IMG/VR virus record: IMGVR_UViG_3300045988_159430
Coordinates: 1-15,643 of that record
DNA: 15,643 bases
Source: a virus
Strand: one strand, 5' to 3'
Shown here: positions 1 to 15,213 of the stretch, one piece after another
Numbering within the stretch: the first letter of the stretch is position 1
Layout of the letters: every line of letters starts with the position of its first letter
Translations under genes and position numbers: made by a program
Notes under the pieces: generated by a model
What the model was told of the DNA's origin: nothing
What the model saw: the letters and a program-made list of their open reading frames with translations, nothing else
Databases searched by the model: none

Positions 1-1479
1 ACTCCAGTCATTGAAGAAAGTAATTGGTTTTTCATTTCCACTAGATGTTATCAAAGTAAATGGTTTCAAATATTCTGGAGATATTATAGTTTTAGAAGTA
101 TTAAATATAATACCATTAGATAGATAATTCTCAGCTACATTATTTAATAGAAACTCTACTCTATCAGTTTCTGGATATTTATAAGCCTTGCCAGCATAAA
201 CCATATCTCCTGCATAATCTAGATGATATTCAATAAAATCTGAACTGATTATCTCATTCCAAACATAATCTTTCCAAATAGGAGATATATCAGATTTAAC
301 AGATTGTGTAATATTAATAGATAAATTAATAATACTTGAACTATTCTTTATAACAGATACTCCAATAGTTGCTTTTCTGGAAGATAATCCTGAATTTTCT
401 GCAATGTTCAAACTAATAGTTGCTACACCTTGAGGATTCACAGTTATCTTCTGTCCACTAATCCAACCTACAGGAATGCTAAATACAACATCATCTAAGT
501 TGTTTGAGCCTGTACCAGTTATATTTAATGTAGATGCAGTTCAACTTACTTCATAATTAGTATTAGGAATCATTAAAGATGTTGCAGCTTGTTTAATTGG
601 AACTGTAGCTTCAAGAGTATAACCTCCAGAAGTTGTTGCAGTAACCATTGCACTAAACTCCAAATTATTAGTAGTTTTATTCTCTGGAACAGTTAATACA
701 AAATAGTTATCAACAATATCCTTTTTAATATTACTAGCTTGAGGGCAGGTGACATTAAATGAGGTAATTGTTTCTTCTGCTTTAGTTGTACTTAAATGGA
801 ATTCTTCAGTAACAAAAGCAGATGCTCCATAAGTTCCAGATGAAGGAGTTACTACTAGCTTTAAATCTTCTGGAGTATTACTTTTTTCAATTTTAAAGCC
901 GTAACTATAACTAATAAATTTATTAGTATCATAATAAGCTCCTAATTGGATAGTTCCAATTAAATCTGTATTTCATTGAGTATTAGCTCTTACTGTAAAT
1001 TTAAACTTAATAGAGCAAGAATCCCAATCCAGAACTTCCATATTAACTAAAGCTGTAGCATTAACAACTGCTGCATTTCATTTAATAATATCTGATCTAT
1101 TTAATATATACTCTACTGTATATTCTCCACCAGTATTTGGTACTTTAATGGTGCCATTAGCAGGATAATATCCAGGAGCTTTACTATGTAAATTAATTGG
1201 TAAATCTTCCTCTAATAAAGCAGTAGTAATGCCTCTAGGATAAAAATGAAATACAGTAGAAGAATCAGTAGTTATTGTTGTAGGAGATAAAAATTGTATT
1301 GTACATCCAGAAGTACTAGGCTCTTGTATAGTTACCTCTAAAGGCCCTTCTTCAGTATAATCATCTCCCCAAGCCCAATAATCATATTCTCCAGTAATTC
1401 CCCATCCAGGATTATTCCATTTAACAGGAAAACTCCTTGATGCGTTATATATTCCTAATTTACTTGGTATAAATGCCAT
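1..1479 (-). CDS. Large structural protein with Ig/BACON-like repeats (tail fibre or receptor-binding candidate); C-terminal end runs off the window
   Basis: ATG at 1477-1479. Track ORF 1078..1479 stops at TGA (tca 1078-1080), but I checked the same frame triplet by triplet to position 1 and found no TAA/TAG, only two more in-frame TGAs (973-975, 541-543). The read-through translation contains ...NYEVSWTASTLNITGTG...VGWISGQKITVNPQGVATISLNIAENSGLSSRKATIGVSV..., which resembles BACON/Ig-like repeats. Product call is by eye only. Confidence 0.8.
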
Positions 1480-1481
1480 TT

Positions 1482-1970
1482 TTAAAAGTTTTTAAATACA
1501 TAATAATCTACTTGTCCTTGAAGATCTTTAGTTATAGCATCATCAAGAAGCTCCATATAGTTATTTTCTATATATTCTATAGTATTTGATAATGGATGTT
1601 TACCTTGAATTCCTTGAAGATGTATCTTCCTCCCAATTAAATATGTAAGCTGATCTATTGTTGGTAACTTACCATTATAAGGTCTGGGAATAATTGGCTT
1701 AGTTTTAATCCAACTCTTTATATCATTAAGTGGAGGGAACTTACCAGAATGTCTGCCTTCTTCAACGTATTTCCAATAATCTAATAAACTAACATTAACT
1801 TCATAATCCCCATTTTGGGTCTCAACAATGTAATTTAAACTATTACCTAATAATCCAGTATCATCAGTCCTTGTTTGAACCAATTCCTGTCTATATAAAG
1901 AAATTATGAGTTCTCCTCAACGTCTTAATAACTCATTTAAATTTGGGAAATTTAGTTCTTGAATATTCAT
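1482..1970 (-). CDS. HK97 gp10-like head-tail / neck structural protein
   Basis: ATG 1968-1970, TAA 1482-1484, 162 aa. Track ORF 1482..1883 is started at a TTG and extends upstream through one in-frame TGA (1917-1919, ...LLRRWGELIISLYRQELVQTR...). The motif DTGLLGNSL...LDYWKYVEEGR resembles the HK97 gp10 family signature. Confidence 0.75.
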
Positions 1971-2013
1971 TTTTGTTAAAATATATTAATTTATAGGTTA
2001 GTATCTAAACACA

Positions 2014-2036
2014 AATAGGGAGACTTACTCCCTATT
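2014..2036 (-). terminator. GC-rich hairpin, candidate intrinsic terminator or leader hairpin next to cassette copy A
   Basis: 9-bp stem AATAGGGAG (2014-2022) / CTCCCTATT (2028-2036) with a 5-nt loop. On the minus strand it is followed by TGTGTTT. It lies between the gene ending at 2092 and the gene starting at 1970. Confidence 0.5.
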
Positions 2037-2040
2037 AAGT

Positions 2041-2089
2041 GTCAAGTTTTTTACTCAAATTTAGTAGTTAAAATAAATAAAAACTGACA
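2041..2089. repeat. 49-bp conserved intergenic cassette, copy A
   Basis: GTCAAGTTTTTTACTCAAATTTAGTAGTTAAAATAAATAAAAACTGACA. The first 28 nt are identical to copy B (7706-7754). The first 17 nt and last 15 nt are identical to copy C (15161-15209). The ends form an imperfect inverted repeat (GTCAAGTTTTT / AAAAACTGAC). Confidence 0.85.
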
Positions 2090-2091
2090 TT

Positions 2092-2876
2092 TTAATGTTT
2101 TCGTTTTCATTCTTCAATTTGTCTATTTTCTTCATTAGCTTTATCTATAACATAACAAATTGTATTTAAGAACTCTTTAATTTGCATATCATAAACTTGA
2201 TGCCAATTAAATTTAGTAACCTCACTTACTTTATCTATTCAGATAATTCAGCTTCATTTTTGAGTAAAAGGAGTAACCGTCTCATCTGTATCAGACTCCT
2301 TAGAATCTTTCTCCTTTCTAATTTGTTCTTTGTTTTCTTCAATTTCTTCTTCATCTCTCTTTCCGAAGAGTGAAGGGTACTCAGAGTTGATAGTCGCAAT
2401 AAGTTTACAAAAAAAAACATTATATCTGAAAATACATCAATTGTTAAATGATTATTCAAAAACTCTGCTTCATCCAAAGGATCATAATCTTCTCCATACT
2501 TCTTACCTTCTGGTAATAAAAAGCAAGCAGCTAGATTTGGCATATAATCATCATACTTCTTATAAAAATTCTGGAAGTCTATGTATTGACTTGCAGTCAT
2601 CTTATTAACATTAAAAAAGACTTTATATTCCCTGTCTCCAATAATATATTTAGTTTCTGGAGTTTTAGGTTTATATGTACTCTCTACAAATTTAAGATTG
2701 TTAATTAATTCTTGTAATTTATTCAGCTCCATATTTTGAATTTCTTCTAAAGAAATATCACTAAGTACAGATACCATAGCTAAATTCATATCTAATTCAT
2801 TTTCTCATTCTTTTCTAATTACATCCAATAGTTTTCTATAATGAGCTAAATTCATTTCATTCCAAGATTTTATCAT
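2092..2876 (-). CDS. Phage protein needing a -1 frame change at a T9 run (tail-assembly-chaperone-like G/GT architecture, or a homopolymer indel); about 261 aa if fused
   Basis: ATG 2874-2876 lies 1 nt after the terL TAG. In-frame TGA at 2805-2807 (...VIRKEWENELD...). Frame 0 is the track ORF 2235..2789 and ends at TAG 2235-2237. After the T9 run (2409-2417) frame 0 turns R/L-rich and uses rare codons. The -1 frame reads CKLIATINSEYPSLFGKRDEEEIEENKEQIRKEKDSK...FNWHQVYDMQIKEFLNTICYVIDKANEENRQIEEWKRKH, is open to TAA 2092-2094, and contains 4 in-frame TGAs (2254, 2248, 2239, 2107). That frame has no start codon of its own: a TAA lies 15 codons upstream of the T run. Confidence 0.6.
2409..2417 (-). 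promoter_or_regulatory. T9 homopolymer (A9 on the plus strand): candidate -1 ribosomal frameshift or transcriptional slippage site
   Basis: Minus strand reads ATG TTT TTT TTT GTA. Re-reading the last T gives TGT AAA CTT..., which is the frame with protein-like composition. A T10 run would fuse the two frames directly. Confidence 0.5.
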
Positions 2877-2877
2877 A

Positions 2878-4125
2878 CTATTTAAATTTAATATTATAAT
2901 GTCCTTTAGTTGTATTTAATGAGTCATAGGCTAGCATTAATGAAATTACTGTATCATCATTAAATCCAGATGGAGCATTATAACTAATATTTCCAGTTTT
3001 TGGATTATATGAAGCTTCATATAGTCTTAACTCATTTAAAAGTTTATCATCTTTTAATAATCCTATCTTTTCATTCTCCAAAGCAGCTTGAAGCTTATTA
3101 ACTATATCTGCCTTACTCTTATTAGTAGTTAAGAATCGTATAATCCTGATTTTCGGATTCTTCTGAACTAACATATCATAGAAGACACTACCAATTGAGT
3201 TTTGTTCAACTTGCACAATCTTTATAAATCCTTGATACTCAGTTAGTATATTTGTTAATAAATCAACTTGCTCTGTTGGAGTTTTATCGTTAAAATACTT
3301 TATAAAGACCATTTGCCCAGATTCATTTAAAGCAGTAACACAAGTATAGTCTTTACCACTCCCAGTAGCCCAGTCTATTCCTATATAAAGACTCTGATAA
3401 TCTGGTTTTTTCTCAATTATGCAATTAGCTATATTATTAAATAAACATCCATCATCATCTGCAAATTCCCCTAAGTATTCGGTTCTAAATTTATTTTTTG
3501 AGGTTGTAAGTCGATACATCTCTAACTTCTCTTTATCTAAAAGCATAGATGTATCTTCTAAAGCTCAATCAAATGATTTATAGAACTTGTCATATTTCGG
3601 ATCTAACCCTTTAGTAAAGCAGTCATAAAAGAAACCCTCTCGGAACCTTGGAGTACTAATAATTAATATTGGAGCAGACCACACATCAGTAGTAGGTTTA
3701 ATAATTTCAAATACTTCATCTTTTAAGTAAGCAGCCTCATCTAATACAAGTAATCCACTTACAGAGAATCCTCGTAACGAATCCATTTGTTCTCCAGATC
3801 TAAATAATATAGAACTGCCATTATTAAACTCTAATTCAAGCAAAGTTTCATTCTTACGTTTAAGAATATCTGCTTCAGCTATAGCATTAACTATTTCTTT
3901 AAACACTTTTCTTGATTGCCCAAGAGTAGGTTCTACTATACAATTGACTGTTTTTGGATAGTTAATTGCAAATCGTAATAATTCATTTTCAGCTAAGAAA
4001 GATTTACCTACTTGTCGTTTAGCTTTAATTGTAAATATCCTTCCAGATCTATAAGCATCTGCCATAGCTATATGAACCTTATATTGGTACATAAATGGCC
4101 TATATCCTTTATATATCCTTGTCAT
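2878..4125 (-). CDS. terL: Terminase large subunit
   Basis: Track ORFs 3565..4125 and 2878..3546 are in the same frame, joined by a single TGA (3565-3567): ...KFYKSFD-W-ALEDTSMLLDKEK.... The N-terminal ATPase has Walker A KAKRQVGKS and Walker B LLVLDEAA. The C-terminal RNaseH-like nuclease begins around LYIGIDWATGSGKDYT. 415 aa, ends at TAG 2878-2880. Confidence 0.9.
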
Positions 4126-4561
4126 TTATAATAGGATCTCCAAATTTAAATTGGCATTCATTATTTTGAATATTAACTTGAATTTCTGGTTGATTTAATC
4201 CAAACATAGAATTTATTGTTTTAATAACCTCAGTAGCAGATCTTACATCATTTTTACTAATAGCAATATCCAACAATGTTTCCAATCTTGTTAATTGTAT
4301 ATGTCTTAAATTCTTTATAAGATTATCGTTTTTATCTGCAATAATCTTATAAGCTTCTCTAATATATTTAGCAGCAGTAGTTTGCCCAACTCCATATTTA
4401 GTTTGAAGTTCCTCACTTACTTTATTTCTGGACCACCCTTTATTAAATAATCTTGCTGCATAAAGATATTTAGTTTTTTGTTCGTCTATTTGATCCTCTT
4501 TTACTTCTTCCTTTTTCGGTCTCCCTATTTTCTTCGGCAGTTCCTGATTCTTTACTTTCAT
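4109..4561 (-). CDS. terS: Terminase small subunit candidate (HTH-containing)
   Basis: 150-aa ORF immediately upstream of terL with a 17-nt overlap. Basic N-terminus followed by an HTH-like segment (YLYAARLFNKGWSRNKVSEELQTKYGVGQTTAAKYIREAYK). Ends at TAA. The call rests on position plus the HTH. Confidence 0.65.
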   Translation of the reverse strand: MKVKNQELPKKIGRPKKEEVKEDQIDEQKTKYLYAARLFNKGWSRNKVSEELQTKYGVGQTTAAKYIREAYKIIADKNDNLIKNLRHIQLTRLETLLDIAISKNDVRSATEVIKTINSMFGLNQPEIQVNIQNNECQFKFGDPIINDKDI

Positions 4562-4805
4562 TTTCCTTTAGTTTTTCTTGATATTCAAAATAGATTGGGG
4601 CAATCCTCTTTATAAGATTAAGTATACAAGTAGCACAAGCTACGCTCATTCTATATTCTTGTTCAATTAAATATTCATAAATCTCTTTAAGCTTAATTAC
4701 ATCCTGCTTTTGTACATTTCTGCAATAATTAGACTTAGTTGCAGTTACAAATCTATCTTCAAATCCTCTTAAATATTTAAACTGCTCTTCTGTTAATTGT
4801 TTCAT
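4470..4805 (-). CDS. Hypothetical protein
   Basis: 111-aa ORF, ATG 4803-4805, TAA 4470-4472. The last 92 nt overlap the terS start in a different frame. The N-terminal 80 aa look like a normal globular protein. No recognisable motif. Confidence 0.6.
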   Translation of the reverse strand: MKQLTEEQFKYLRGFEDRFVTATKSNYCRNVQKQDVIKLKEIYEYLIEQEYRMSVACATCILNLIKRIAPIYFEYQEKLKENESKESGTAEENRETEKGRSKRGSNRRTKN

Positions 4806-4807
4806 AA

Positions 4808-4882
4808 TTAGCGCTTTTTAGTATAAGTAAATATAGAAATTAACTTTCCATTCTTGTAGTGATAAATAACTTCTGTTTCCAT
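4808..4882 (-). CDS. Very small ORF (24 aa), uncertain
   Basis: ATG 4880-4882 lies 12 nt after the upstream stop. TAA 4808-4810 lies 2 nt before the next ATG (4805). Peptide METEVIYHYKNGKLISIFTYTKKR. Supported only by the tight spacing. Confidence 0.2.
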   Translation of the reverse strand: METEVIYHYKNGKLISIFTYTKKR

Positions 4883-4894
4883 AAAATATAATTT

Positions 4895-5224
4895 TTAATT
4901 AATAAGTTTGTATATAACATCTATCAGCTTAGTAGATGCATCTTTTAATAATATCATAATATCTTTAATAATTGGAGTCATAAATGCTAATAGTGCAATA
5001 TACCCAACCATTAAAATTGAAAATTGACTTGTAATAAGAATATATATTAATCCAATTCACCAAGTCATACATAAACTGCAATCTAAAGGTTTTAGTCTTC
5101 AATCTTCTTTATAAGGTATACCTTTAAATAGTCTTTTTCAAATACTGTGTTTAAAACTATCCAAAGCCCCAGATAAATCAATTATAAAGACTATTATTAC
5201 TGCTATTATAAATAATTCTAACAT
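4895..5224 (-). CDS. Small integral membrane protein (about 3 TM segments)
   Basis: Not in the ORF track because of 3 in-frame TGAs (5138-5140, 5099-5101, 5057-5059). ATG 5222-5224, TAA 4895-4897, 109 aa: MLELFIIAVIIVFIIDLSGALDSFKHSIWKRLFKGIPYKEDWRLKPLDCSLCMTWWIGLIYILITSQFSILMVGYIALLAFMTPIIKD.... The C-x2-C...WW membrane motif resembles DUF1360-type proteins (by eye). Confidence 0.7.
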
Positions 5225-5463
5225 AATCTCTCTCTTATTTGTTTAATAAATCTTTGAATTGTAGTATGACTAATTCCTAATATTCTTCCCACTTCTCTAT
5301 AACTGTGATATTCAGCATATAATATGATTACTGTCTTATCTGCCTTATTAAGCTCAAGTCATTTTGGATATATACTTAATAGTCTATCATCCATATTTGT
5401 AAACATACTATAGTCTATTTCATACTCAGTAAGTAAATCGTCAATATTAATCTTCCGTTTCAT
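5218..5463 (-). CDS. Sigma-70 region 4-like protein (C-terminal half of an ECF-type sigma factor, as a separate ORF)
   Basis: Not in the ORF track (in-frame TGA 5359-5361). ATG 5461-5463 is immediately preceded by an in-frame TAA. Ends at TAG 5218-5220, 81 aa: MKRKINIDDLLTEYEIDYSMFTNMDDRLLSIYPKWLELNKADKTVIILYAEYHSYREVGRILGISHTTIQRFIKQIRERLC. This matches the region 4 pattern L--L----r-v--L-----s--EIa--lgis--TV--r---a---L. Confidence 0.65.
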
Positions 5464-5755
5464 TTAATCAATCCTCCAATTCGTCATTTTGTTGTTCAAG
5501 TGGTTCTTTAACAATCTCATAATATTTCTTATAGGTATAGTAATATCTACTTGTTTTACTAAACCAATAATTCTTAAATAATCTTGTAATCCAAAATTTC
5601 AATTCATTTTTGCTATCAAGCTGATTTAATTTTGGATTTGAATACTCTAGTATTTCTACAAAAATCATTTGAACACAGTCATCATCTGCACCAAATTTTT
5701 GCTTAAGTTCCATAATAAATGGATAGTACTTTTCTACAATTTCGTTATTACTCAT
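5447..5755 (-). CDS. Sigma-70 region 2-like protein (N-terminal half of an ECF-type sigma factor, as a separate ORF)
   Basis: Track ORF 5468..5755 ends at TGA 5468-5470. Under TGA=Trp it extends 7 codons (WLNETED) to TAA 5447-5449. ...GADDDCVQMIFVEILEYSNPKLNQLDSKNELKFWITRLFKNYWFSKTSRYY... fits the ECF region 2 pattern (D-vQ--F--l ... -Wl--i--N-----R). Confidence 0.6.
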
Positions 5756-6242
5756 ATGTTCACATATATCCTCCTGCTGTTTTTCGCTGCCCTTTAAGAA
5801 CCTTTACAATATTTCTAGATTGTATATTTAGTTCTCTCTCAGCATCTATTGCTGAATCCCATCTTTTAATAACTATTCCATTTAGTAATTGCAGTATTGG
5901 TTTCTTATGACTATATCCAGCTCGCAGATTATGAGTTCCATAATTATTATTATAATTATAAGTACACCATTCTAAATTACTTACATTATTATTTGATTTA
6001 TTTTCATCCTTATGATTTATACAAGGATAGTTATTCGGATTAGATATAAAAGTTTCAGCTACTAATCTATGTATATAACACTTCTTTTTCAAATTTTTAT
6101 TATATAATGTTACTGTAAAGTACCCATTAGTTTTTACTTGAGGTTTTAACCTCTTTGGAACTGATGCTCTTAAACTTCATATTGAGCCATCAGTTCCAAT
6201 TTGGTAGTTTTCAAAATTAAGTATTCTTTTATAGGCTATCAT
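5748..6242 (-). CDS. HNH homing endonuclease (NUMOD4-like N-terminus, HNH core, IENR1/NUMOD1-like C-terminal HTH)
   Basis: Track ORF 5760..6092 is TTG-started and TGA-ended. The same frame extends upstream through TGA 6177-6179 to ATG 6240-6242 (MIAYKRILNFENYQIGTDGSIWSLRASVPKRLKPQVKTNGYFTVTLYNKN...). It extends downstream through TGA 5760-5762 to TAA 5748-5750 (...RKTAGGYM-W-TYE). HNH core: HRLVAETFISNPNNYPCINHKDENKSNNNVSNLEWCT. Confidence 0.9.
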
Positions 6243-6666
6243 TTGCTATATAATTACTAAATTCTGTATTTACATCTATCTTAATGGCTTTCTTTAAAGA
6301 CAACTCTGTTTTTAATGAATAGCCATAAGTTCCTCCAAAATCTGTTGTAGAACAACCATATTTCATAGAATCCTTTATAAAGGCTTGTTTTATATCTTTA
6401 AATATATATACTCCATCATCAAATATTATTACTAATATAGAATTATTTCTTGATAGCATATCAAATTTATCCCTATTAATAATAGTGGTTGGATATTTAT
6501 TAGAATTAAATCTTCTCCTTTTAACTTCAATTATATAATCAATTCCATTCCAATTAAATGTTCCATCATATCTGGAGTAATCGTCTTTACATCATTCTAT
6601 GTCTATATTAAATTTCTCTTTAAATAGATTCTTTGTAAAGACTAAGCTTCTTATATCTGTTTTCAT
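6229..6666 (-). CDS. Hypothetical protein, possible PD-(D/E)XK-fold nuclease
   Basis: Track ORF 6229..6459 extends upstream in frame through TGA 6592-6594 to ATG 6664-6666, which forms a TAATG overlap with the upstream gene. 145 aa. ...SRYDGTFNWNGIDYIIEVKRRR... gives a D-x14-E-x-K arrangement. The function call is weak. Confidence 0.6.
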
Positions 6667-6905
6667 TATTTTATATTATTAATTTTAAGTGTTAAATCAC
6701 AATATTCTTCATATAAATTAGATACTTCTTCACTTGCTGGATTAATCCACATTACTGAATCTAATTTATGTTTTAATTCTGCTCTTTCTAATCTTAATTC
6801 AAATGTTTTATGTTGTCTTTCCTGATAGACTTCATTTACTCTAAAACCTGCAACAATTGAAGATGCAATTAAAAGACCAACTAAAATTTTATTTATTTTT
6901 TTCAT
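6666..6905 (-). CDS. Small protein with an N-terminal signal-anchor/TM segment; first gene of the leftward operon
   Basis: 79-aa ORF, ATG 6903-6905, TAA 6666-6668. N-terminus MKKINKILVGLLIASSIVAGF. It sits about 40 nt downstream of a consensus promoter. Confidence 0.7.
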   Translation of the reverse strand: MKKINKILVGLLIASSIVAGFRVNEVYQERQHKTFELRLERAELKHKLDSVMWINPASEEVSNLYEEYCDLTLKINNIK

Positions 6906-6942
6906 AATTTTATTATTTATAAGTTAATACTTGTTTATTATT

Positions 6943-7000
6943 GTACTACAAAGATAATACATTTTTATTCAATTTCCAAATTTTTTAGGTATTATTTTTA
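6943..7000 (-). repeat. Left arm of a 58-bp inverted repeat (promoter duplication)
   Basis: The reverse complement TAAAAATAATACCTAAAAAATTTGGAAATTGAATAAAAATGTATTATCTTTGTAGTAC aligns without gaps to 7590-7647, with about 48 of 58 identical. The last 17 nt are nearly perfect. Confidence 0.8.
6949..6980 (-). promoter_or_regulatory. Bacteroidota-type promoter driving the leftward operon
   Basis: Minus strand: TTTG (6980-6977), a 20-nt spacer, then TATCTTTG (6956-6949). This matches the Bacteroides -33 TTTG / -7 TAnnTTTG consensus. Confidence 0.6.
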
Positions 7001-7056
7001 TTATTTTCAAAAAAATATTACTATTTGTATTTTTATTATATATTAATAAAAACAAT

Positions 7057-7542
7057 ATGATTTACGTAATTAAATTAACTAAAACGAATTTTATTAAAGT
7101 TGGTTACACTACTAATATAAGTGGCAGACTAACTGCTTATAAAAATACTATTCCAAATGAGATGATAGAATTTTTTATAGCAAAAGAAGGAAATAGAGAT
7201 GATGAAAATTATTATAGAGATAAATATAGAGCATATAAAACTAAGAGTAATTCAGAATGGTTAAAACTTCCAGATGAATTAATTGTAGAGCTATTAGCAG
7301 ATTTTAAGAGTGCAAATAATATAAAAATAAATAAACAAAGCAAAAAAGAATGATATAATGAGAATATAGATAAATTAGTAGAATTGTGCTTATCTGGAGT
7401 ATCATTAAATAGAGCTGCAATTCAATTAAATGCACTAAATTGAGACTGAATAAAATATGCTAATCAAAGATACGAAAAAGAGAATGGCAAAAAATTAACA
7501 AAACTTTGGGTAAGAAAAATCAAGAAAAGTTTTGCAGAATAA
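7057..7542 (+). CDS. T5orf172-domain (GIY-YIG superfamily) protein with a C-terminal HTH-like domain
   Basis: Track ORF 7057..7353 ends at TGA. The same frame continues through TGAs at 7351-7353, 7441-7443 and 7447-7449 to TAA 7540-7542, 161 aa. N-terminus: IYVIKLTKTNFIKVGYTTNISGRLTAYKNT...SEWLKLPDE (T5orf172 pattern). C-terminus: WYNENIDKLVELCLSGVSLNRAAIQLNALNWDWIKYANQRYEKENGKKLTKLWVRKIKKSFAE. Confidence 0.8.
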
Positions 7543-7561
7543 AAATTTATTATTATATTTG
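7531..7561 (+). promoter_or_regulatory. Bacteroidota-type promoter (P1)
   Basis: TTTG 7531-7534, a 19-nt spacer, then TATATTTG 7554-7561. It overlaps the 3' end of the T5orf172 gene. Confidence 0.55.
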
Positions 7562-7589
7562 TAGTGTAAAGAAAAAAATAATTTTTTAT

Positions 7590-7647
7590 TAAAAATAATA
7601 CCCGAATTATTTGGAAATTTAATTTTTATGTATTATCTTTGTAGTAT
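7590..7647 (+). repeat. Right arm of the 58-bp inverted repeat (promoter duplication)
   Basis: TAAAAATAATACCCGAATTATTTGGAAATTTAATTTTTATGTATTATCTTTGTAGTAT is the inverted copy of 6943-7000. Confidence 0.8.
7610..7641 (+). promoter_or_regulatory. Bacteroidota-type promoter (P2), rightward twin of the leftward promoter
   Basis: TTTG 7610-7613, a 20-nt spacer, then TATCTTTG 7634-7641. Confidence 0.6.
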
Positions 7648-7669
7648 GAAACTAAAACTAATAATTCTA

Positions 7670-7695
7670 GGCAGGTGAAAATCCTGCCACTTTTT
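7670..7695 (+). terminator. Intrinsic terminator-like hairpin with T tract
   Basis: GGCAGG (7670-7675), loop TGAAAAT, CCTGCC (7683-7688), then AC TTTTT (7691-7695). It lies only about 30 nt downstream of the predicted P2 start site. Confidence 0.6.
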
Positions 7696-7705
7696 GAATC
7701 TTACT

Positions 7706-7754
7706 GTCAAGTTTTTTACTCAAATTTAGTAGTAAGAAAATAAAAATATTGACA
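7706..7754. repeat. 49-bp conserved intergenic cassette, copy B
   Basis: GTCAAGTTTTTTACTCAAATTTAGTAGTAAGAAAATAAAAATATTGACA. Same absolute orientation as copies A and C. It ends 30 nt before the helicase ATG (7785). Confidence 0.85.
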
Positions 7755-7784
7755 AAAACTTTAACTATTTAAATTATTAAAATT

Positions 7785-9506
7785 ATGAAAACATATTTAA
7801 ACAATTTGATTAATGAGTTGCCAACTAACTGTTTATTTGATAAAGGAAAAGTTGGATGTGGAGGAACTTCAATGGCAATTGAATGTAATAAGCCTTATGT
7901 TATTTGTGTTCCATTTACTAGCTTAGTTGAAAATAAACTTCAACAATATCCAAATGAAAGACGTACTGAGAAGATATTTGGAGTTTATGCTGGAGTTACT
8001 ATTAAAGAGATTAAAGATTACGTAGAGAGTGTTAAATGTCCTAAAATTATTGTTACATATAACTCACTTCCAAAAGTTATTTCTGCAGTTAATACTAAAG
8101 AATATAGTTTATTAGTAGATGAATATCATATACTATTTAATCAGTATAGCTTTAGAAAGGATGCTATTAAACCTGTTTTAGAGAACTATGAATTATTTAA
8201 AGATTTTACATTTATGACTGCTACTCCTCTTGAAGAAGAGTTTGTATTAGATGAATTAAAAGATTTAGAATTAGTAAAGCAAGAATGGGATGATGTTATT
8301 GAAACCAAGGTACAAGCCGTTAAATGTAAGAATGTTGAAGCTTCAACTATTAAATTAATTAATGCTGTTCTTAATAATCAAGTCGAAGGTAATGTTTATA
8401 TATTTGTAAATTCTGTAGACTTTATAAAGAATCTTATTCAGAAAGCTAAACTTACAGAAGAGAATACCAGAGTTATATATTCCAAAAACAATAAAACCAA
8501 ATTATCAATTCATAATTCTACAGTATTAGATGAACCTAAGAAAATAAATTTATTAACTTCTACAGTATTTGAAGGTTCTGATATTTATGATGAAAATGGA
8601 AGAATTGTAGTAGTAAGTGATGCTCAAAAAGCACAAACTCTTCTTGACATCTCAACTTCAATCCAACAGATTGCTGGCAGAATTAGAAATAGTAAATATT
8701 TAAACTGGATAACTCATCTTTACTCAGCAACAAGATATGCAGATATTAGTTATGAAGACTTTAAAAAGAAGAATATCCAGAATATTGAGGAAACTAAGAT
8801 TGCTGTAGATGCTTACAATGCAATGCCTGAAGTTGCAAGAAAGAAACTTAAAGAATTTACATCTGATACTTATATCCAAGTAAATGATGATTTTACATTT
8901 ACATTTGATCCAAATATGGCTAAGGTAGATATTTTTAACTTTAAAGTGACAAGAGGTTTATATTCTATTAGAACGAATCTTAATAAAGAATATATAAAGA
9001 ACGGATTTAAAAAAGTAGTAGAATGTGAAGACAACTCTATTAAGATTGATTTTGAATCTGATAATAAACCATTTAAAGAACTAATTAAAGAAGTTAGAAC
9101 AGAATGGGAAAATAAATTTAAACTGAATACTCCACTCTTAAATGATGCTATTATTAAATATCCTTGGTTACCAGAAGCTATTAGTAAATTAGGATTCGAA
9201 AAGATGGCAAGCTTGAAATATTGCATTTCGGATATTAAAGATGCTCTATTAAAGAAATCAAATAAAAGTGCAGATAATAAAGCAGCTAAGAAGTTAAATC
9301 AATCAATTACTCTTGGAATGTGGTATTCTAACGCTGATATTAAAAAGTTTGTTAAAGAAGCTTATGAAATTAGTGATATTACTATTACTCCAAAAGCAAC
9401 AGAAATTGATAAATATTATGAAGTTAAAAAATGCCAGAAAAGAGTAAATGGTAAACAAACTGAAGGTTATGTAATTATTAATAAAAAGTTTGTATTTAAT
9501 AAATAA
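7785..9506 (+). CDS. Superfamily 2 (DExH-type) helicase, replication/early module
   Basis: 573-aa intact ORF ending at TAA. Motif I GKVGCGGTS, motif II LLVDEYH, motif III MTATP, motif VI QQIAGRIRN. No in-frame TGA; it has 5 TGG Trp codons. Confidence 0.85.
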   Translation: MKTYLNNLINELPTNCLFDKGKVGCGGTSMAIECNKPYVICVPFTSLVENKLQQYPNERRTEKIFGVYAGVTIKEIKDYVESVKCPKIIVTYNSLPKVISAVNTKEYSLLVDEYHILFNQYSFRKDAIKPVLENYELFKDFTFMTATPLEEEFVLDELKDLELVKQEWDDVIETKVQAVKCKNVEASTIKLINAVLNNQVEGNVYIFVNSVDFIKNLIQKAKLTEENTRVIYSKNNKTKLSIHNSTVLDEPKKINLLTSTVFEGSDIYDENGRIVVVSDAQKAQTLLDISTSIQQIAGRIRNSKYLNWITHLYSATRYADISYEDFKKKNIQNIEETKIAVDAYNAMPEVARKKLKEFTSDTYIQVNDDFTFTFDPNMAKVDIFNFKVTRGLYSIRTNLNKEYIKNGFKKVVECEDNSIKIDFESDNKPFKELIKEVRTEWENKFKLNTPLLNDAIIKYPWLPEAISKLGFEKMASLKYCISDIKDALLKKSNKSADNKAAKKLNQSITLGMWYSNADIKKFVKEAYEISDITITPKATEIDKYYEVKKCQKRVNGKQTEGYVIINKKFVFNK

Positions 9507-9520
9507 AAATATTATATTTG
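9489..9520 (+). promoter_or_regulatory. Bacteroidota-type promoter (P3) inside the 3' end of the helicase gene
   Basis: TTTG 9489-9492, a 20-nt spacer, then TATATTTG 9513-9520. The next ATG (9525) is only 4 nt downstream, which implies a leaderless or near-leaderless mRNA. Confidence 0.55.
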
Positions 9521-9524
9521 TGAT

Positions 9525-9686
9525 ATGGAAGGAGATATTAAAGAAACAATTAAACAAACAGAAGAGTATATTAAAGAATTGGATAAATGAATACTTGAGT
9601 GTAAAGAAGCTACTAAAAGATTTGGTGATATTATAGATAAAGTATTAAAAAATAAAGATTATATGTTTATTTCTAAATTTGATTAA
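9525..9686 (+). CDS. Small hypothetical protein (53 aa)
   Basis: ATG 9525, in-frame TGA 9588-9590, TAA 9684-9686: MEGDIKETIKQTEEYIKELDKWILECKEATKRFGDIIDKVLKNKDYMFISKFD. Absent from the ORF track because of the TGA. Followed 2 nt later by the next ATG. Confidence 0.5.
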
Positions 9687-9688
9687 TT

Positions 9689-9829
9689 ATGGATGATTAT
9701 TTATTTAAAAAGCTTGAAGAACTAGAATACAGAATAGTTCAACTAGAAAACCAGAATAGAGGTTTAGTTTGGGAAGAAGTAGAAGAAATGCCAAAACCAG
9801 AAATTCCTAATGTAACATATACTGACTAA
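9689..9829 (+). CDS. Small hypothetical protein (46 aa)
   Basis: ATG 9689, TAA 9827-9829: MDDYLFKKLEELEYRIVQLENQNRGLVWEEVEEMPKPEIPNVTYTD. Coiled-coil-like. Tightly packed, with 1 nt before the next ATG. Confidence 0.5.
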   Translation: MDDYLFKKLEELEYRIVQLENQNRGLVWEEVEEMPKPEIPNVTYTD

Positions 9830-9830
9830 T

Positions 9831-9974
9831 ATGAAATATCAAACCTATAAAGTATGCATAAATGGAGTGTATTATGTATATGTAATACCAGAAAATAGTA
9901 GGTTTTTAGTGGACTTACAAACAGGAGATTTAATACCTAAAGAAGATGATAAATTATTTGAAATGATGGAATAA
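9831..9974 (+). CDS. Small hypothetical protein (47 aa)
   Basis: ATG 9831, TAA 9972-9974: MKYQTYKVCINGVYYVYVIPENSRFLVDLQTGDLIPKEDDKLFEMME. Last gene before the convergent terminator. Confidence 0.5.
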   Translation: MKYQTYKVCINGVYYVYVIPENSRFLVDLQTGDLIPKEDDKLFEMME

Positions 9975-9979
9975 ATGAA

Positions 9980-10005
9980 AATAGGAGGGCATAAACCCTC
10001 CTATT
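9980..10005. terminator. Bidirectional intrinsic terminator between convergent modules
   Basis: 10-bp stem AATAGGAGGG (9980-9989) / CCCTCCTATT (9996-10005) with loop CATAAA. T-rich tracts follow on both strands (TTCTGTTT on plus, TTTTCATTT on minus). It sits between the plus-strand stop at 9974 and the minus-strand stop at 10011. Confidence 0.7.
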
Positions 10006-10010
10006 TCTGT

Positions 10011-10580
10011 TTAAGCGTATTTTCAAATGTATCCTTTAGATGTTTGCTTTAATCCACTACATACTCTACTAATGGCTCCTCTATCAGTTCCTACTGCATT
10101 AGCCGCTTCAGTACAGCTTTCATATTCCTTAATAAAGTTTCCCTCTAAATCATATTGTAAAACCTTTTTACATCTTTTCTTATTATGAATTTCATTACTA
10201 ATCTTCCAAGGCAAACTATATAAATGTTTCTTACCTTTATTTGATTCTGATAGTTTCTTTCTTCATTCTGTAGAAAATTTTATTCCATAGTTGCCACCTT
10301 CACCTCCTGGCTTCAAGTTTAAACACATTGGATCTACTTCCCATTTATCTCCTATTAATTCATACTCCTTTTTAGATAATTCATCTGAATCATTACAGAA
10401 TGCAATTATTTCTTTTTTATATGCATTAGGAAATCTTTTATAGTAGTTCTTAATAATTTTACCAGAACCTTTATATGGATCTTTATATGGGTCTTTTCCT
10501 TTATAAATACGCTTACCAATGTAATATTTTCCTCTCAATGAGCCAGCAGTTAAATAAATTTTATAACAATAGTAAAACAT
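10011..10580 (-). CDS. GIY-YIG homing endonuclease (GIY-YIG core, NUMOD3-like linker, IENR1/NUMOD1-like HTH)
   Basis: Track ORFs 10263..10580 and 10023..10214 are in the same frame, joined by TGA 10263-10265 (...GIKFSTE-W-RKKLSESNKGKKHLYSLPWK...). The second ORF ends at TGA 10023-10025 and continues to TAA 10011-10013 (...TSKGYI-W-KYA). Core: YCYKIY...GKYYIGKR...EYELIG...CLNLKPGGEGG. 189 aa. TAATG overlap with the endolysin stop. Confidence 0.9.
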
Positions 10581-11032
10581 TATATAATTGTAAATTTCTG
10601 TCTTCTCTGCAAACCCTCTTTATTCTTCAGTCCTAAATGAATTCAACTAGCTATTCCATTTCTAGGTTTCTCATAAATAAGTTGATCAAAATCATACTTT
10701 TCAATAGCTTCAGTAATCCAAACCTGAAATTCTTTCATTTGGCCGTTACTTGGAATTATATCTGCTGCATATCCTGTTAGATGGGCAGATGTCAAAGATC
10801 CTCCTACAGCTTTATTAAGCTCATTACATCTATAACCTGAATTCACACTTATTGCTGGATTCCCCAACCGATTAACATCACAATACTCTGCCCAATCACT
10901 TCTTAATGGGTCTAAAAGTTTCTCGACTAACTCTATAAGGTGTTCAGTAATCTCTTTATTTGGAGTATTATCTATCTTCTTAATAGAAGCTGTATCAGAT
11001 CTTGTTAATTCACTAATAGTAAAATATTTCAT
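10580..11032 (-). CDS. Endolysin, peptidase M15 family (zinc D-Ala-D-Ala carboxypeptidase / L-Ala-D-Glu peptidase-like)
   Basis: Track ORF 10643..11032 ends at TGA 10643-10645 and continues to TAA 10580-10582 (...PRNGIAS-W-IHLGLKNKEGLQRRQKFTII). Motifs SGYRCNELNKAVGGSLTSAHLTGYAADI are typical of M15 peptidases. 150 aa. Confidence 0.9.
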
Positions 11033-11193
11033 TATTTAATAATATCTTTAAGCATAGTATAACGGTAAAATAAATGACATCCTGCACCAAGTGCTATGAG
11101 TACTAATGTAATCCAAAATGGAATTACTTTTACCATTAAAAATACTAAGATTATAATTACTATTGCTATTAAATATTTCATCCAATATTTCAT
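11032..11193 (-). CDS. Holin candidate (53 aa, two TM segments)
   Basis: ATG 11191-11193 (alternative ATG 11179-11181). TAA 11032-11034 forms a TAATG overlap with the endolysin start. MKYWMKYLIAIVIIILVFLMVKVIPFWITLVLIALGAGCHLFYRYTMLKDIIK. Too short for the ORF track. The call rests on position and topology only. Confidence 0.6.
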   Translation of the reverse strand: MKYWMKYLIAIVIIILVFLMVKVIPFWITLVLIALGAGCHLFYRYTMLKDIIK

Positions 11194-11196
11194 AAC

Positions 11197-11850
11197 TTAT
11201 TTATTTAAAATTATACTTACTTTAATTCCTGCATCTCTTAGTTTTACTCAAGTATCAACTGGCATCTCATTATCACAATAAGATAAGCCTAAAATTCCAA
11301 TATCTCTATCTTCTGATTTTAAATAGAATATTGCAATCTTATTAACATCATTAGATTTAAATGAATAATACATTCTTCTATCTAATTCCTTTATATCTTC
11401 AACATCTCCAAATCATCCTCCTTTTTTAGATGTTTCCAATATAAATAAATAATCAGATAATAGGAAGTCTTTATAGTGACTTGAAACTGGAGCAACTCCA
11501 GGTTCTGTTTCTTCACTATTCATAATTCCATAAGTGAATGGTAATCCTCCTAATCCTGAAGTGCCATTATGATACTCAATAACTCAAGCTCTATCTGCAT
11601 TCGTATCATTTAAAAGGTCTTTAAGGATATATCTAACCTTAAGATCCGCTTCTTGTCGTATTACTTGATTAGTATTATGAACTGTTTCTATATAACTTAC
11701 AACTTTATCATATATTATTCCTGGATTAGTACTTATAATTATTACATAAGAAATAAATATAAATCCAAATCCACCTTTAATTATTTTCCACAGTCCATAT
11801 TTATCTACTCATTCTAATACCTTTCCAAACCAGTTTAATTTATTTTCCAT
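11197..11850 (-). CDS. Membrane-anchored protein of unknown function, first gene of the lysis cluster
   Basis: Absent from the ORF track: 4 in-frame TGAs (11809-11811, 11584-11586, 11413-11415, 11248-11250). I translated every codon from ATG 11848-11850 to TAA 11197-11199, 217 aa: MENKLNWFGKVLEWVDKYGLWKIIKGGFGFIFISYVIIISTNPG...DRAWVIEYHNGTSGLGGLPFTYG...KKGGWFGDVEDIKELD...MPVDTWVKLRDAGIKVSIILNK. One N-terminal TM segment. Confidence 0.7.
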
Positions 11851-12275
11851 TACATATTATCAGAACAAGTACCCAGAGTGTTGTCTACAGCTAAATCAAC
11901 TCTAACAAATACTCCAGTACAAATATCTTTGAACTTCTGATAAAATGGAGTAAAAATTAAAGGATAAGAAATATCAACTTCTGGATATTGGTTATTAAAT
12001 CGGTTAATTATATTAGTTAATGCTAATATTCCAGCTGATTGCTCTTCAAGCTGATTATTATCAGTCTCATCCCATCTTGCTATAAAATAGAGATTTAAAG
12101 AGTAAGTAATAGTATCCTCATCCATATTAAATGTATTTGGAGTTATATAAAATACATTATATTCAATAGTTGGGATACTATTAAGTTCATATATATCCTT
12201 ACTTCCTACAAAATTAATATTGGGTTCTTCAAGAGCACAAGCTTTTAAATTGTTTATTAATTCAAAATACGTCAT
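11850..12275 (-). CDS. Hypothetical structural (neck/tail-completion?) protein
   Basis: Track ORF 11850..12377 overlaps the upstream gene by about 100 nt. The internal ATG 12273-12275 (MTYFELINNLK...) lies 1 nt after the upstream TAA and is the more likely start. 141 aa, ends at TAA 11850-11852. Confidence 0.65.
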   Translation of the reverse strand: MTYFELINNLKACALEEPNINFVGSKDIYELNSIPTIEYNVFYITPNTFNMDEDTITYSLNLYFIARWDETDNNQLEEQSAGILALTNIINRFNNQYPEVDISYPLIFTPFYQKFKDICTGVFVRVDLAVDNTLGTCSDNM

Positions 12276-12276
12276 T

Positions 12277-12954
12277 TTACTTACTCTTTTTATTGTTATC
12301 ACTTGAAGGGAAATCATAAGCTCTTTGCAGAGGACCTTCACAAGAATTATATCTCCAACCTTTACCTCTAGCTCCACCTAACCAAATAGTGCAAGATGAA
12401 CTTGAATACATATTTGGATACATATCTTTAAGAGGTTTATAAGAATACAATTCAGGAAAATCATTATAATATGTAATTACCCAATTTTGCAATCTAGTTT
12501 TAAAGAAATCTGCTTTATCTCTATAATACTTCTTAATAAGATTAACTTGATTAATATCAGAAGTTAAATCTTTCTCATCATCAGTCCTCATAACCCCAAA
12601 ATTACTCAGCTTAAATGAGATGGGTATAGTAATCTCACTTAATACTTGATAAAGTAAATAAGGCTGAATATAGTAATCTAGCAATTCTTTATATCTATGA
12701 TTTTCTGGGTCATCTATTGAAGTAGGATCATAAATAGGAGGTTCTATTGGATGAACTGGTTTATTTGGATCTTTTCAATCAATTACTAATTTCTGAATCT
12801 TTTCTAAGAGCTTAGTTCCAATTAATGACTGAAGCTCAATATCTTGTGCAAGTTTAATTGCTGACTGAAGATATTTACCAGAAACATTATTGTCTAAATT
12901 GGATTCTGATTTTATATAATCTTCAGATATTAATAGTACATTTCTATATTCCAT
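12277..12954 (-). CDS. Head-tail connector / adaptor-like protein (gp6-like N-terminus)
   Basis: Track ORF 12277..12684 is TTG-started and extends upstream through TGA 12775-12777 to ATG 12952-12954: MEYRNVLLISEDYIKSESNLDNNVSGKYLQSAIKLAQDIELQSLIGTKLLEKIQKLVIDWKDPNKP.... This N-terminal pattern resembles head-tail connector proteins. 225 aa, ends at TAA. Confidence 0.7.
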
Positions 12955-13597
12955 AATAATATTTATAATTTTTGCAGGGTTTATTTTTTCTACAAGATCT
13001 AGATATACTAGAAGAATCTACATTATTCTTCTCTCCAGCTTCCTTAGCTGATTTATACTCACAAATAAAATTACCATCTAAATCATACTTATATACTTTT
13101 TTGCACTGACGTTCTGAAATTAGTTGTTTTTCTTTATCTGAGAGTTTCATACCTTTATTTCAAGGAGTTTTGCCTAATCTTGCCTCCCTCATTTTACGCT
13201 TGCTTTCATCTGAATGCTGTTTACCATAAAATGAGTTATTTTCTCCTGATCTTATAATTCTAAGACTATCTTTATAATCTTGTGAAAAAGAATATCCACA
13301 AGTACCGTCTCCTCCATCAGTTAAATTATACCCATATTTTGGATTTCTAGTATTATACTTATAAATCAGAATCTTTTCTAAAGTCTTAGCACAAGCTTCT
13401 GGAAGATTATCTCTAATTATAATATGCTCAAAATTATCTCAACCATATTTTTTAATTGCTCTGCTAAAATAAAGATTATTCTTGTAACCTTGACCTTTAG
13501 TTCCCCATCTATTATTTAAAGTAAGTGATGTTATTCCAAAATATAATTTATTATCAGCTATATTCTTATGGCAGTACACTGTATAATTATTCAACAT
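12944..13597 (-). CDS. GIY-YIG homing endonuclease inserted between the portal and connector genes
   Basis: Track ORF 12944..13150 is only the C-terminal HTH. The same frame continues upstream through TGAs 13160-13162 and 13439-13441 to ATG 13595-13597. 217 aa: MLNNYTVYCHKNIADNKLYFGITSLTLNNRWGTKGQGYKNNLYFSRAIKKYG-W-DNFEHIIIRDNLPEACAKTLEKILIYKYNTRNPKYGYNLTDGGDG...ENNSFYGKQHSDESKRKMREARLGKTP-W-NKGMKLSDKEK.... Ends at TAG 12944-12946. Confidence 0.9.
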
Positions 13598-14678
13598 TTT
13601 CTGCATTGTCTGACATTCCTTTTGGAGTTAAACTAAATGGTTCAATAGTAATACTATTCTTAATGCCGAAGATTTTATCAAATGAGTCACAAATTTCTGA
13701 TTGTATTGGGCGTACAAAAGTACGATTATATAGCTTAAATGCTTCATTAAACTCATTTTCATTAAATCCTGAGCTATAGTTTAAACCGAACAACGAAGGA
13801 TTAGCTCTGAAGGCACAGAATATTTGATCTCTGGTTCTCTCAGATAATGATTGATATTTCTCATCAAAATCATCAGAATCTAATCTTTCAATAGTAGTCT
13901 TATTTGCCTCATCTGCATTATATGAAATCAATATTCTGCCAGCATTCTGATAACCAGAGAACTTCTCATTAATATTCCTCTCAATCTCCTCTCTAATTTC
14001 ATCTGTAGGTTCCCCATTATTAAAGTTAATAATAAGATTACCCATAAATCCATTATTGATGTTATTTAAATGGAATTCATTAATATTTTTCTCAGTTTCA
14101 CAAGATAAAATAGCAGCTCCATAAACAGGAATAGGATATACTCCTCTTGTTATATAACCTTTATTATAAAATATACTAGCTGGATTTTCATCCCCAGCTC
14201 CAAATTTTGGATATTTTATAGCTTTTACAGACCAAGCTGTCCAATCAGTTGCATAATATAATATATCATTCTTTTCGCTTGACCTTACATTCATAAAATC
14301 AATATGATATATCTCTGCAACTCTTCCGAGCATATCTCTAATTACTTGGATAGCATAACCTCCAAATATCATCTTATCAATAGTGATTTTTCTCATTATA
14401 TCAACTATTGTTTCACCTTTCTTGTTTACAACTACTTCAAATCCTGGAGCATTACATTTAACATCGTTACCAACAATAAAGTCAGCAGAACCATTAATAA
14501 TGGATTGGAGAGTGGCAACATTTAAATATAAATCCCATAGATATAATGGATATTTGTTATCTTCTCCCCACATTACATAATCTTTTCCCCTCACTTTAGT
14601 TTCTGTAGGTAATACGATATTACTTGCAATAAATGGATCAATAGCACTTAACTGAACTTTTGTTTTATTTTCGCTCAT
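13587..14678 (-). CDS. Portal protein
   Basis: 363-aa intact ORF (ATG 14676-14678, TAA 13587-13589). ...YVMWGEDNKYPLYLWDLYLNVATLQSIINGSADFIVG..., GGYAIQVIRDMLGRVAEIYHIDFMNVR, NNGFMGNLIINFNNGEPTDEIREEIERNINEKFSGYQNAGRILISY...DEKYQSLSERTRDQIFCAFRANPSLFGL match the Phage_portal / PBSX-type portal pattern by eye. Confidence 0.85.
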   Translation of the reverse strand: MSENKTKVQLSAIDPFIASNIVLPTETKVRGKDYVMWGEDNKYPLYLWDLYLNVATLQSIINGSADFIVGNDVKCNAPGFEVVVNKKGETIVDIMRKITIDKMIFGGYAIQVIRDMLGRVAEIYHIDFMNVRSSEKNDILYYATDWTAWSVKAIKYPKFGAGDENPASIFYNKGYITRGVYPIPVYGAAILSCETEKNINEFHLNNINNGFMGNLIINFNNGEPTDEIREEIERNINEKFSGYQNAGRILISYNADEANKTTIERLDSDDFDEKYQSLSERTRDQIFCAFRANPSLFGLNYSSGFNENEFNEAFKLYNRTFVRPIQSEICDSFDKIFGIKNSITIEPFSLTPKGMSDNAENVE

Positions 14679-15057
14679 AACTTACGTATGTATTAGGTTT
14701 GTCGTATTGATAATTATTATTCTCATAATCTCCAATTCTTATTAATCCTGTTCCCAATATAGGTATTGGTTTACCAGCAACTAATATCTGAGTACCATTA
14801 GTAAGAGTATTATTATATGTAACCAGAATAACTGGATTGCCATATAACTCTGATCTAAATGGATTGTTTACATCAACTATAACTTGAAATTTATTTGGAT
14901 TAGTAAATAAAATATATTGATATTCACCGTCTCTCATTCCTTCTTGAAGTGTAATATCAAACTTATAGTAGATATTCTCAGAATAATTCTGATTTTCAAG
15001 ATTAAATGTATAAACTTCTTTAGTAGTTGTATTTTGCATTAATAAAGTATAATTCAT
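14665..15057 (-). CDS. Hypothetical protein upstream of the portal gene
   Basis: 130-aa intact ORF, ATG 15055-15057, TAA 14665-14667, with a 14-nt overlap with the portal start. First gene downstream of cassette copy C. No recognisable motif. Confidence 0.7.
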   Translation of the reverse strand: MNYTLLMQNTTTKEVYTFNLENQNYSENIYYKFDITLQEGMRDGEYQYILFTNPNKFQVIVDVNNPFRSELYGNPVILVTYNNTLTNGTQILVAGKPIPILGTGLIRIGDYENNNYQYDKPNTYVSYERK

Positions 15058-15209: not shown

Positions 15210-15213
15210 AAAA

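Follow-up and report, generated by a model that had tools for sequence, protein, structure and literature searches.

This study concerns the control region and the stop codon usage of a window of 15,643 nucleotides, which is the whole stretch of DNA that was analysed, corresponds to positions 1 to 15,643 of the IMG/VR virus record IMGVR_UViG_3300045988_159430 and has a GC content of 28%. From our point of view, the window represents about half of a tailed phage of ~30 kb that belongs to an uncultured, Bacteroidota-infecting gut lineage, in which the reading of TGA as tryptophan (Trp) is a property of the phage clade and the decoding of UGA is left to the infected cell. To this explanation as a whole we would assign a probability of roughly 0.7.

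Searches against known phages were of little help in placing the window. Neither megablast of the complete window against 50,697 GenBank phages nor tblastn with the tail fibre returned a match, whereas tblastn with the large terminase subunit (TerL) yielded only matches of <30% identity to Thermus, haloarchaeal and jumbo phages, which are uninformative on the host. The helicase-like protein likewise found nothing among cultured phages beyond unrelated ones at ~30% identity or less. Dozens of mosaic relatives of 29-33 kb are present in IMG/VR and in public assemblies, and a complete relative of 29,156 bp was rebuilt from the loci L001 and L025. Genomes of the lineage are ~30 kb in size with ~45 genes and consist of a one-strand operon of ~27 kb and a short convergent module on the opposite strand, which holds a helicase-like gene and three small open reading frames (ORFs). 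A divergent control region separates the long operon from the short module, and a hairpin at 9978-10007 marks their common end. The portion of the complete relative that lies beyond the window is exclusively structural (tail proteins, a tape-measure-like protein, prohead protease, capsid and fibres). A further relative (L055) was noticed at 109806-130855 within a 'viral' contig of 148,631 bp (IMGVR_UViG_3300045988_175865); its gene order runs on circularly, which suggests that this contig is a concatemer of about 5 x 30 kb.

The consensus published for the Bacteroides primary sigma factor (sigma-ABfr) combines a -33 TTTG box with a -7 TAnnTTTG box (PMC7366714). The original prediction had placed four such sites in the window, and all four are there to the nucleotide, the two boxes being 20, 19, 20 and 20 nt apart. 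The predicted leftward promoter P_L (6949-6980, minus strand; TTTG, 20 nt spacer, TATCTTTG) lies ~44 nt ahead of the ATG (6905) of the gene that opens the long leftward operon, and both of its boxes are kept in relatives bearing four different spacer sequences. In the rightward direction, the predicted promoter P_R1 (7531-7561, plus strand; TTTG, 19 nt spacer, TATATTTG) overlaps the 3' end of a T5orf172 ORF and is conserved in relatives, and P_R2 (7610-7641, plus strand; TTTG, 20 nt spacer, TATCTTTG), a near-copy of P_L in inverted orientation, is located 144 nt upstream of the helicase-like gene. The last predicted site, P_R3 (9489-9520, plus strand; TTTG, 20 nt spacer, TATATTTG), sits at the end of the helicase-like gene with its -7 box ending 4 nt ahead of the ATG at 9525, and has counterparts at 27477-27508 of the complete relative g111919 and in many other relatives. 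The four -7 boxes hence come in two forms, each of them found in two sites.

All four sites are confined to 2.6 kb (6.9-9.5 kb), where they occupy non-coding DNA or the ends of genes and are each directed towards an ORF downstream. The composite motif was observed 4 times against 0.34 +/- 0.52 expected, none of 200 dinucleotide shuffles reached 4, and a first-order Markov simulation produced 0.38 on average and never more than 3 in 300 runs. The two-box motif is thus more than 10-fold enriched and does not occur at the level that chance would produce at this AT content, while sigma-70-type sites in the same region are not enriched (17 vs 27.6 expected). When the motif was scanned for across the complete relative, as had been proposed for the whole genome, zero sites were found beyond the control region. 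A less circular test than the motif count is whether the boxes are conserved despite divergence of the spacer. Upstream of both the first leftward gene and the helicase gene, the relatives retain the two boxes with at least four unrelated spacer forms, and such sites also occur in the distant loci L060, L061 and L062/L063. The predicted promoters therefore resemble sigma-ABfr promoters in both boxes, in their 19-20 nt spacing, in their position 40-150 nt upstream of ORFs and in their conservation among relatives. They differ in being phage-borne and known from sequence, and in that the P_R3 mRNA, which covers a 53-aa ORF, would be almost or possibly entirely leaderless. In Bacteroides thetaiotaomicron, 5' untranslated regions of <10 nt are rare (about 3.7%; PMC7366714).

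The start codons point in the same direction. As had been claimed from the sequence, they follow A/T-rich DNA (4-8% GC in the 25 nt before 7785, 7057, 6905 and 1970, and 20% before 15057) and lack a Shine-Dalgarno (SD) sequence: a GGAG/GAGG/AGGA core precedes 4 of 24 starts, which is the background rate, and all four cores lie inside overlapping upstream genes. Across the family loci the core is found in 0-16% of genes, again at background, and the same crude method scored 50-52% in two Firmicutes prophages (L081, L082) and 5-18% in Bacteroides chromosomal contigs as controls. Upstream of the genes, A occupies position -3 in 70% of cases and accounts for 52-55% of the bases at -11 to -15, with a G fraction of 0.03-0.18. 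In its composition, this start context resembles the A-rich, Kozak-like one described for Bacteroidetes (PMC7366714).

With regard to the relatives, a scan of the GTDB genome collection with a TerL profile placed the nearest syntenic ones at 39-50% identity. All of them use the standard code, and they reside mostly in metagenome-assembled genomes (MAGs) of Bacteroidia, Paludibacteraceae and Bacteroides; two at 39% TerL identity (L068 and L069) lie in Bacteroides sp. MAG contigs of 189 kb and 587 kb and share 5-7 syntenic genes. A host call from the TerL relatives alone was rejected as ambiguous, since both Bacteroidia and Clostridia occur among their MAG bins. Homologues of the helicase-like protein (47-48% identity) occur in integrated elements adjoining Arm-DNA-bind_5/Phage_int_SAM_5 integrases, and the flanks of these elements carry genes of Bacteroidota type (BACON, DPP-IV, OmpA-like, class-A beta-lactamase and CBAH). 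A tail protein of the phage itself shows a weak, sub-threshold Pfam match to BACON. It may also be mentioned that a 132 kb contig (L144; ENA ERZ28598220 scaffold_71) carries at 5900-21740 a TAG-recoded prophage of 31-32% GC beside a Phage_int_SAM_5 integrase; the host contig uses the standard code at 38-40% GC, and the prophage holds a helicase-like homologue of 44% identity. From promoters, SD-less starts and relatives, a host within the Bacteroidota is well supported by the sequence data. The claim of a standard-code Bacteroidota host therefore stands as far as the phylum is concerned, whereas the code of the host follows only from that phylum.

A host with a peptidoglycan wall is further indicated by the endolysin (10580-11032, minus strand, with one in-frame TGA), which had been described as an M15 peptidase and indeed matches PF08291 Peptidase_M15_3 (E = 3e-14) as well as the phrog_894 endolysin (E = 2e-30). 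Its zinc motif SxHxxGxAxD (H-x6-D) is intact, with SAHLTGYAAD aligning to SRHMYGHAAD of PDB 1LBU, and the protein is conserved in 31 unique relatives. As such, the argument that had been drawn from it against Mollicutes holds, and wall-less hosts can be excluded.

If TGA is treated as sense, the share of the window that is covered by ORFs of at least 100 aa rises from 56% under the standard code to 87%, a gain to which that obtained with TAG as sense is not comparable. Aligned to standard-code relatives, the in-frame TGAs face W, F and Y most prominently (738, 334 and 217, respectively), and TGG codons give an equal profile. In the homing endonucleases, TGAs stand at classic Trp positions of the YGW, PWNKG and GGYxW motifs. 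Among the tallied genes the stop codons are TAA (29) and TAG (5), and TGA is never required as a stop. A meaning of TGA as Trp in this phage is hence well supported by the alignments and reading frames.

The distribution of the codes among the relatives is equally informative. All relatives down to 63% portal identity are TGA-recoded, and the nearest syntenic relatives with the standard code are found at 43-50% TerL identity, the standard-code relatives being L019, L020 and L064-L075. Two others at 34-37% TerL identity (L076 and L077) are TAG-recoded, as judged from an ORF coverage that increases from 0.57-0.69 to 0.89-0.96, and a tRNA with the anticodon CUA is encoded in L076. The family thus spans three codes (standard, TGA-recoded and TAG-recoded) that are sorted by clade, and therefore the code tracks the phage clade. 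Within the reading that we favour, and with the same confidence, we take recoding to be a property of the phage clade and not of a code-4 host. The notion of a phage-specific TGA reassignment is borne out to the extent that the code varies with the phage clade; its other half, a standard code in the host, comes only from the phylum.

None of the genes that could bring about such a code change were found. ARAGORN detects no tRNA in the 15.6 kb of the window, as had been stated before, and neither a tRNA nor a tmRNA in the complete genome of 29,156 bp (including relaxed settings) or in 63 family loci (978 kb). Rfam at E <= 10 returned nothing tRNA-like, and Pfam and PHROGs revealed no release factor, tRNA synthetase or tRNA-modifying enzyme, with Pfam lacking matches to any translation factor. 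The suggestion that a suppressor tRNA, a release factor or a tRNA synthetase would be encoded in the remainder of the contig is hence not borne out by the complete relative or the 63 loci, and the idea that the phage itself supplies the suppressor is left without support; phage-encoded machinery of the kind expected for a code change (tRNA-Sup(UCA), RF1, TrpRS) was found neither in the window nor in the complete genome and these loci. Two further candidates were considered and discarded. Intergenic hairpins are not anticodon-like and thus no hidden suppressor RNA, since their loops differ between relatives, and the TGA-free 573-aa protein of the rightward module has a generic superfamily 2 (SF2) helicase fold with homologues in the replication modules of standard-code elements, which argues against a role as code switch.

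The way in which TGA is used fits a costly or conditional decoding. In this 28% GC genome, the A-ending fraction of the Lys, Glu, Gln, Leu and Arg codon pairs amounts to 0.67-0.90, while TGA makes up only 0.34 of the Trp codons (family mean 39%). Its use is moreover sharply gene-specific. Among unique relatives, the helicase-like gene contains 1 TGA vs 100 TGG (22 relatives; none in the copy of the window), the capsid gene 1 vs 102, the neighbour of the capsid gene 2 vs 71 and the holin-like gene 0 vs 33 (17 relatives), whereas the TGA fraction in fibres and homing endonucleases reaches 0.6-1.0. TGA is also found in genes that lie just downstream of the host-type promoters, namely in the 145-aa ORF (6229-6666), in both sigma-like ORFs and in the first small ORF after P_R3. 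With regard to a standard code of early genes and a recoded codon in late ones, the picture is mixed: the helicase-like and the first leftward gene are free of TGA, but the sigma-like ORFs use it, and the capsid and holin-like genes avoid it. Because there is no phage tRNA and TGA occurs directly downstream of host-type promoters, the textbook scheme, in which a phage tRNA drives the change from early standard to late recoded genes, does not seem to apply here. The nucleotide context 3' of the codon was inspected for a signature of readthrough with nothing decisive in the base frequencies (A 43% and C 4% after TGA; A 32% and C 8% after TGG).

Around the control region, the first gene of the leftward operon (6666-6905, minus strand) encodes 79 aa with a hydrophobic N-terminal segment and is free of TGA in 15 unique relatives, and on the other side the T5orf172/MUG113 (GIY-YIG-like) gene (7057-7542, plus strand) contains 3 in-frame TGAs and is probably mobile, as only some relatives have it. 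Between P_R2 and the helicase-like gene, the 144 nt leader (7645-7784) includes a GC hairpin followed by a T-run (7670-7688, plus strand) that is terminator- or attenuator-like. Because other relatives form the equivalent stem from a different sequence (GCTGGGA...TCCCAG), the leader suggests attenuation or the production of a short RNA of ~50 nt from P_R2. The product of the gene that follows (7785-9506, plus strand) is an early, SF2 helicase-like protein of 573 aa in which a Walker A motif, a DEYH box and a TAT motif can be recognised. Its AlphaFold model (mean predicted local distance difference test score 82) has the generic SF2 fold of two RecA domains, with matches that include the origin-binding protein of herpes simplex virus 1, and the protein, as modelled, reads as a replication helicase and not as a code-switch factor. 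Downstream of P_R3 follow small ORFs of 53 aa (9525-9686, with 1 TGA), 46 aa (9689-9829) and 47 aa (9831-9974), all on the plus strand. The hairpin at 9978-10007, with a stem of 13 bp, separates this convergent module from the point where the long leftward operon ends and probably terminates transcription both ways.

Within the long operon, all on the minus strand, domain and profile matches identify a T4-type TerL (2878-4125), which spans one in-frame TGA, and a portal protein (13587-14678). A TGA-free protein of 53 aa with two transmembrane segments (11032-11193) adjoins the endolysin, and its putative role as a holin is inferred from position and hydrophobicity. Two further ORFs contain TGA, overlap by 17 nt and are syntenic in standard-code relatives. 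One of them (5447-5755) is sigma-70 region 2-like by our own reading, and the other (5218-5463) is region 4-like with weak Sigma70_r4_2 and helix-turn-helix matches; the pair could represent a split or frameshifted phage sigma factor. The window holds four genes of homing-endonuclease type in 15.6 kb, two of which vary in presence between near-identical relatives: besides T5orf172, these are, on the minus strand, an HNH gene (5748-6242, 2 TGA), a NUMOD1 gene that is missing from some relatives (10011-10580, 2 TGA) and a GIY-YIG/NUMOD3 gene (12944-13606) with TGAs at its YGW and PWNKG motifs. The four have the highest TGA fractions (0.6-0.73).

A conserved element of ~55 nt (TGTCA-N5-TTATTT..TAC..N6-GAGTAAAAAACTTGACA) was also observed, with a 17-mer that is identical in all copies. 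This 17-mer is found on the minus strand of the window at 2040-2056, 7705-7721 and 15160-15176, and copies are present at 13461-13477 and 22078-22094 of the genome rebuilt from L001 and L025. With 4-5 copies per genome, always in the orientation of the long operon, the element occupies gaps between genes where modules meet, and most copies have a GC hairpin within about 10 nt downstream (RNA fold z = -3.6). It may serve as a middle or late promoter or as a regulator site for the sigma-like proteins of the phage.

Taken together, the following course of events can be imagined. The host RNA polymerase with the Bacteroidota primary sigma factor would start divergent transcription in the control region, with P_L firing leftward into the ~27 kb operon of regulatory, packaging, tail, head and lysis genes, and the three rightward promoters driving the short module of the SF2 helicase-like gene and the three small ORFs. 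Translation would be initiated without SD pairing from A-rich leaders, as in Bacteroidia. Since the phage has no tRNA, release factor or tRNA synthetase, the decoding of UGA as Trp would come from something already present in the infected cell, most likely through near-cognate reading by the host tRNA-Trp(CCA) in competition with RF2, perhaps with the help of an unrecognised phage factor, or else through a suppressor that is supplied by another resident element. As its decoding would be costly or conditional, TGA could act as a translational throttle, which the helicase-like gene, made first, and the capsid gene, made in bulk, would avoid.

Whether UGA is decoded as Trp efficiently, and with no suppressor tRNA at all, by an entire 30 kb phage lineage inside Bacteroidota cells that use the standard code is a more specific question, which we would affirm only tentatively and with considerable doubt. 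Two routes are conceivable. The phage could exploit the host tRNA-Trp(CCA), for example in variants with a 4 bp anticodon stem, and its host range would then be limited to such strains. In 24 Bacteroidales genomes, the sole tRNA-Trp(CCA) is such a 4 bp anticodon-stem variant, and UGA stops are used less often there (PMC13092985). Alternatively, a small unrecognised phage protein or RNA could disable RF2.

Several observations weigh against the explanation that we favour. The efficiency of near-cognate readthrough normally falls far short of what proteins with 3-4 TGAs would require. A simple switch from an early standard to a late recoded state is difficult to reconcile with TGA in genes that are probably early and regulatory; suppression would therefore be needed from the start of infection, which speaks against a switch timed by the phage. 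The link to the host is indirect, and three syntenic relatives (L065, L071 and L075) come from MAG bins labelled Acutalibacteraceae or Clostridia. Mis-binning is the likely reason for the latter, because those contigs are phage-sized and equally SD-less. Finally, the promoters are predictions from sequence, and the -7 box TAnnTTTG taken by itself occurs at chance level (32 vs 25.3 expected); the signal therefore consists in the two-box architecture and its placement.

Among the alternatives, a suppressor could be provided in trans by another TGA-recoded phage or prophage, for instance a crAss-like one, that resides in or co-infects the same cell and carries a tRNA-Sup(UCA). This would account for a lineage that itself lacks a tRNA, and it is in line with the occurrence of suppressors in related recoded phages, such as the tRNA(CUA) of L076, and of recoded prophages in standard-code Bacteroidota (L144; others in Borges et al.). 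However, an obligate co-infection is hard to square with an abundant and diverse lineage of dozens of ~30 kb genomes, so that we consider this explanation unlikely.

Another explanation would be that the host natively reads UGA as Trp, as an undescribed code-4 lineage of the Bacteroidota or with Bacteroidota-like signals, and that the phage simply mirrors it. Complete genomes devoid of tRNA, release factor and tRNA synthetase, TGA in late genes and in probable early and regulatory ones alike, and the absence of any need for TGA as a stop would all follow naturally. Yet for an ordinary Trp codon TGA is under-used relative to other A-ending codons, and its near-exclusion from the helicase-like and capsid genes would be unexpected. 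Furthermore, syntenic relatives are standard-code or TAG-recoded, with the code varying by phage clade, and a screen of 42,109 genomes names no Bacteroidota among the lineages that have reassigned UGA to Trp (PMC13092985). The Mollicutes, as the classic code-4 hosts, lack peptidoglycan, and yet the endolysin is conserved. Phages of Mycoplasma and Spiroplasma do share TGA as a Trp codon and need no suppressor in their native code-4 hosts, but in contrast to them, the phage described here has a peptidoglycan endolysin, uses TGA as a minority Trp codon (0.34-0.39) and carries promoters of Bacteroidota type. A native code-4 host thus appears rather improbable to us. Least plausible by far is that the four motif matches reflect AT-rich chance or another promoter class and say nothing on the host: although the window has a low GC content, the sites are just four and their -7 box alone is not enriched, the composite motif is, not one shuffle reproduces it, the sites are clustered, intergenic and correctly oriented with boxes that are kept while spacers diverge, and the lack of SD sequences and the Bacteroides-linked relatives agree with it independently.

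Stop-codon reassignment as such is not restricted to this lineage. Crass-like phages, for which TGA or TAG reassignment was reportedly described by Yutin et al. in 2021, are also low-GC gut phages that infect Bacteroidota; with about 100 kb vs 30 kb and an unrelated gene content they are nevertheless clearly different, and they have their own RNA polymerase and usually suppressor tRNAs.

The closest parallel is provided by the TGA- and TAG-recoded gut phages with predicted standard-code Firmicutes and Bacteroidetes hosts that were reported by Borges et al. (2021/2022), who also found small recoded clades of 22-34 kb, with Garnet, Amethyst and Topaz among the small clades, and recoded prophages in Prevotella. 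The lineage shares with these phages the gut-type origin, in-frame TGA as Trp, a predicted Bacteroidota host, presumably with the standard code, the ~30 kb size of the small clades and relatives that are TAG-recoded or standard. It shares with them, too, the lack of a detected suppressor, which is common in code-4 genomes: a TGA suppressor tRNA was detected in only 35% of the code-4 genomes (Borges et al.), and since most published ones thus also lack it, a suppressor is not strictly class-defining. Unlike those phages, the lineage could be placed in none of the named clades, its recoding extends beyond structural and lysis genes to sigma-like genes and homing endonucleases, and the absence of tRNAs, release factors and tRNA synthetases is demonstrated on complete genomes and lineage-wide. 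What the original prediction arrived at is hence a phenomenon that was already known, found again in a lineage that could not be matched to a named clade. The new aspects are modest and consist in the lineage-wide absence of tRNA, release factor and tRNA synthetase genes, the presence of TGA in regulatory genes and its strong avoidance in the helicase-like and capsid genes.

Overall, the analysis illustrates that promoter architecture and the absence of SD sequences can assign a host at the phylum level where database matches fail. How stop codons are read in the roughly two-thirds of recoded phages without a detectable suppressor is an acknowledged gap, and the lineage, with its complete genomes of ~30 kb, clear host-type promoters and sharply gene-specific TGA avoidance, represents a compact test case for it. 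If the host is found, a mechanism without tRNA will become directly testable, and a code switch that is independent of a phage tRNA, if true, would explain why the suppressor goes undetected in most code-4 phage genomes.

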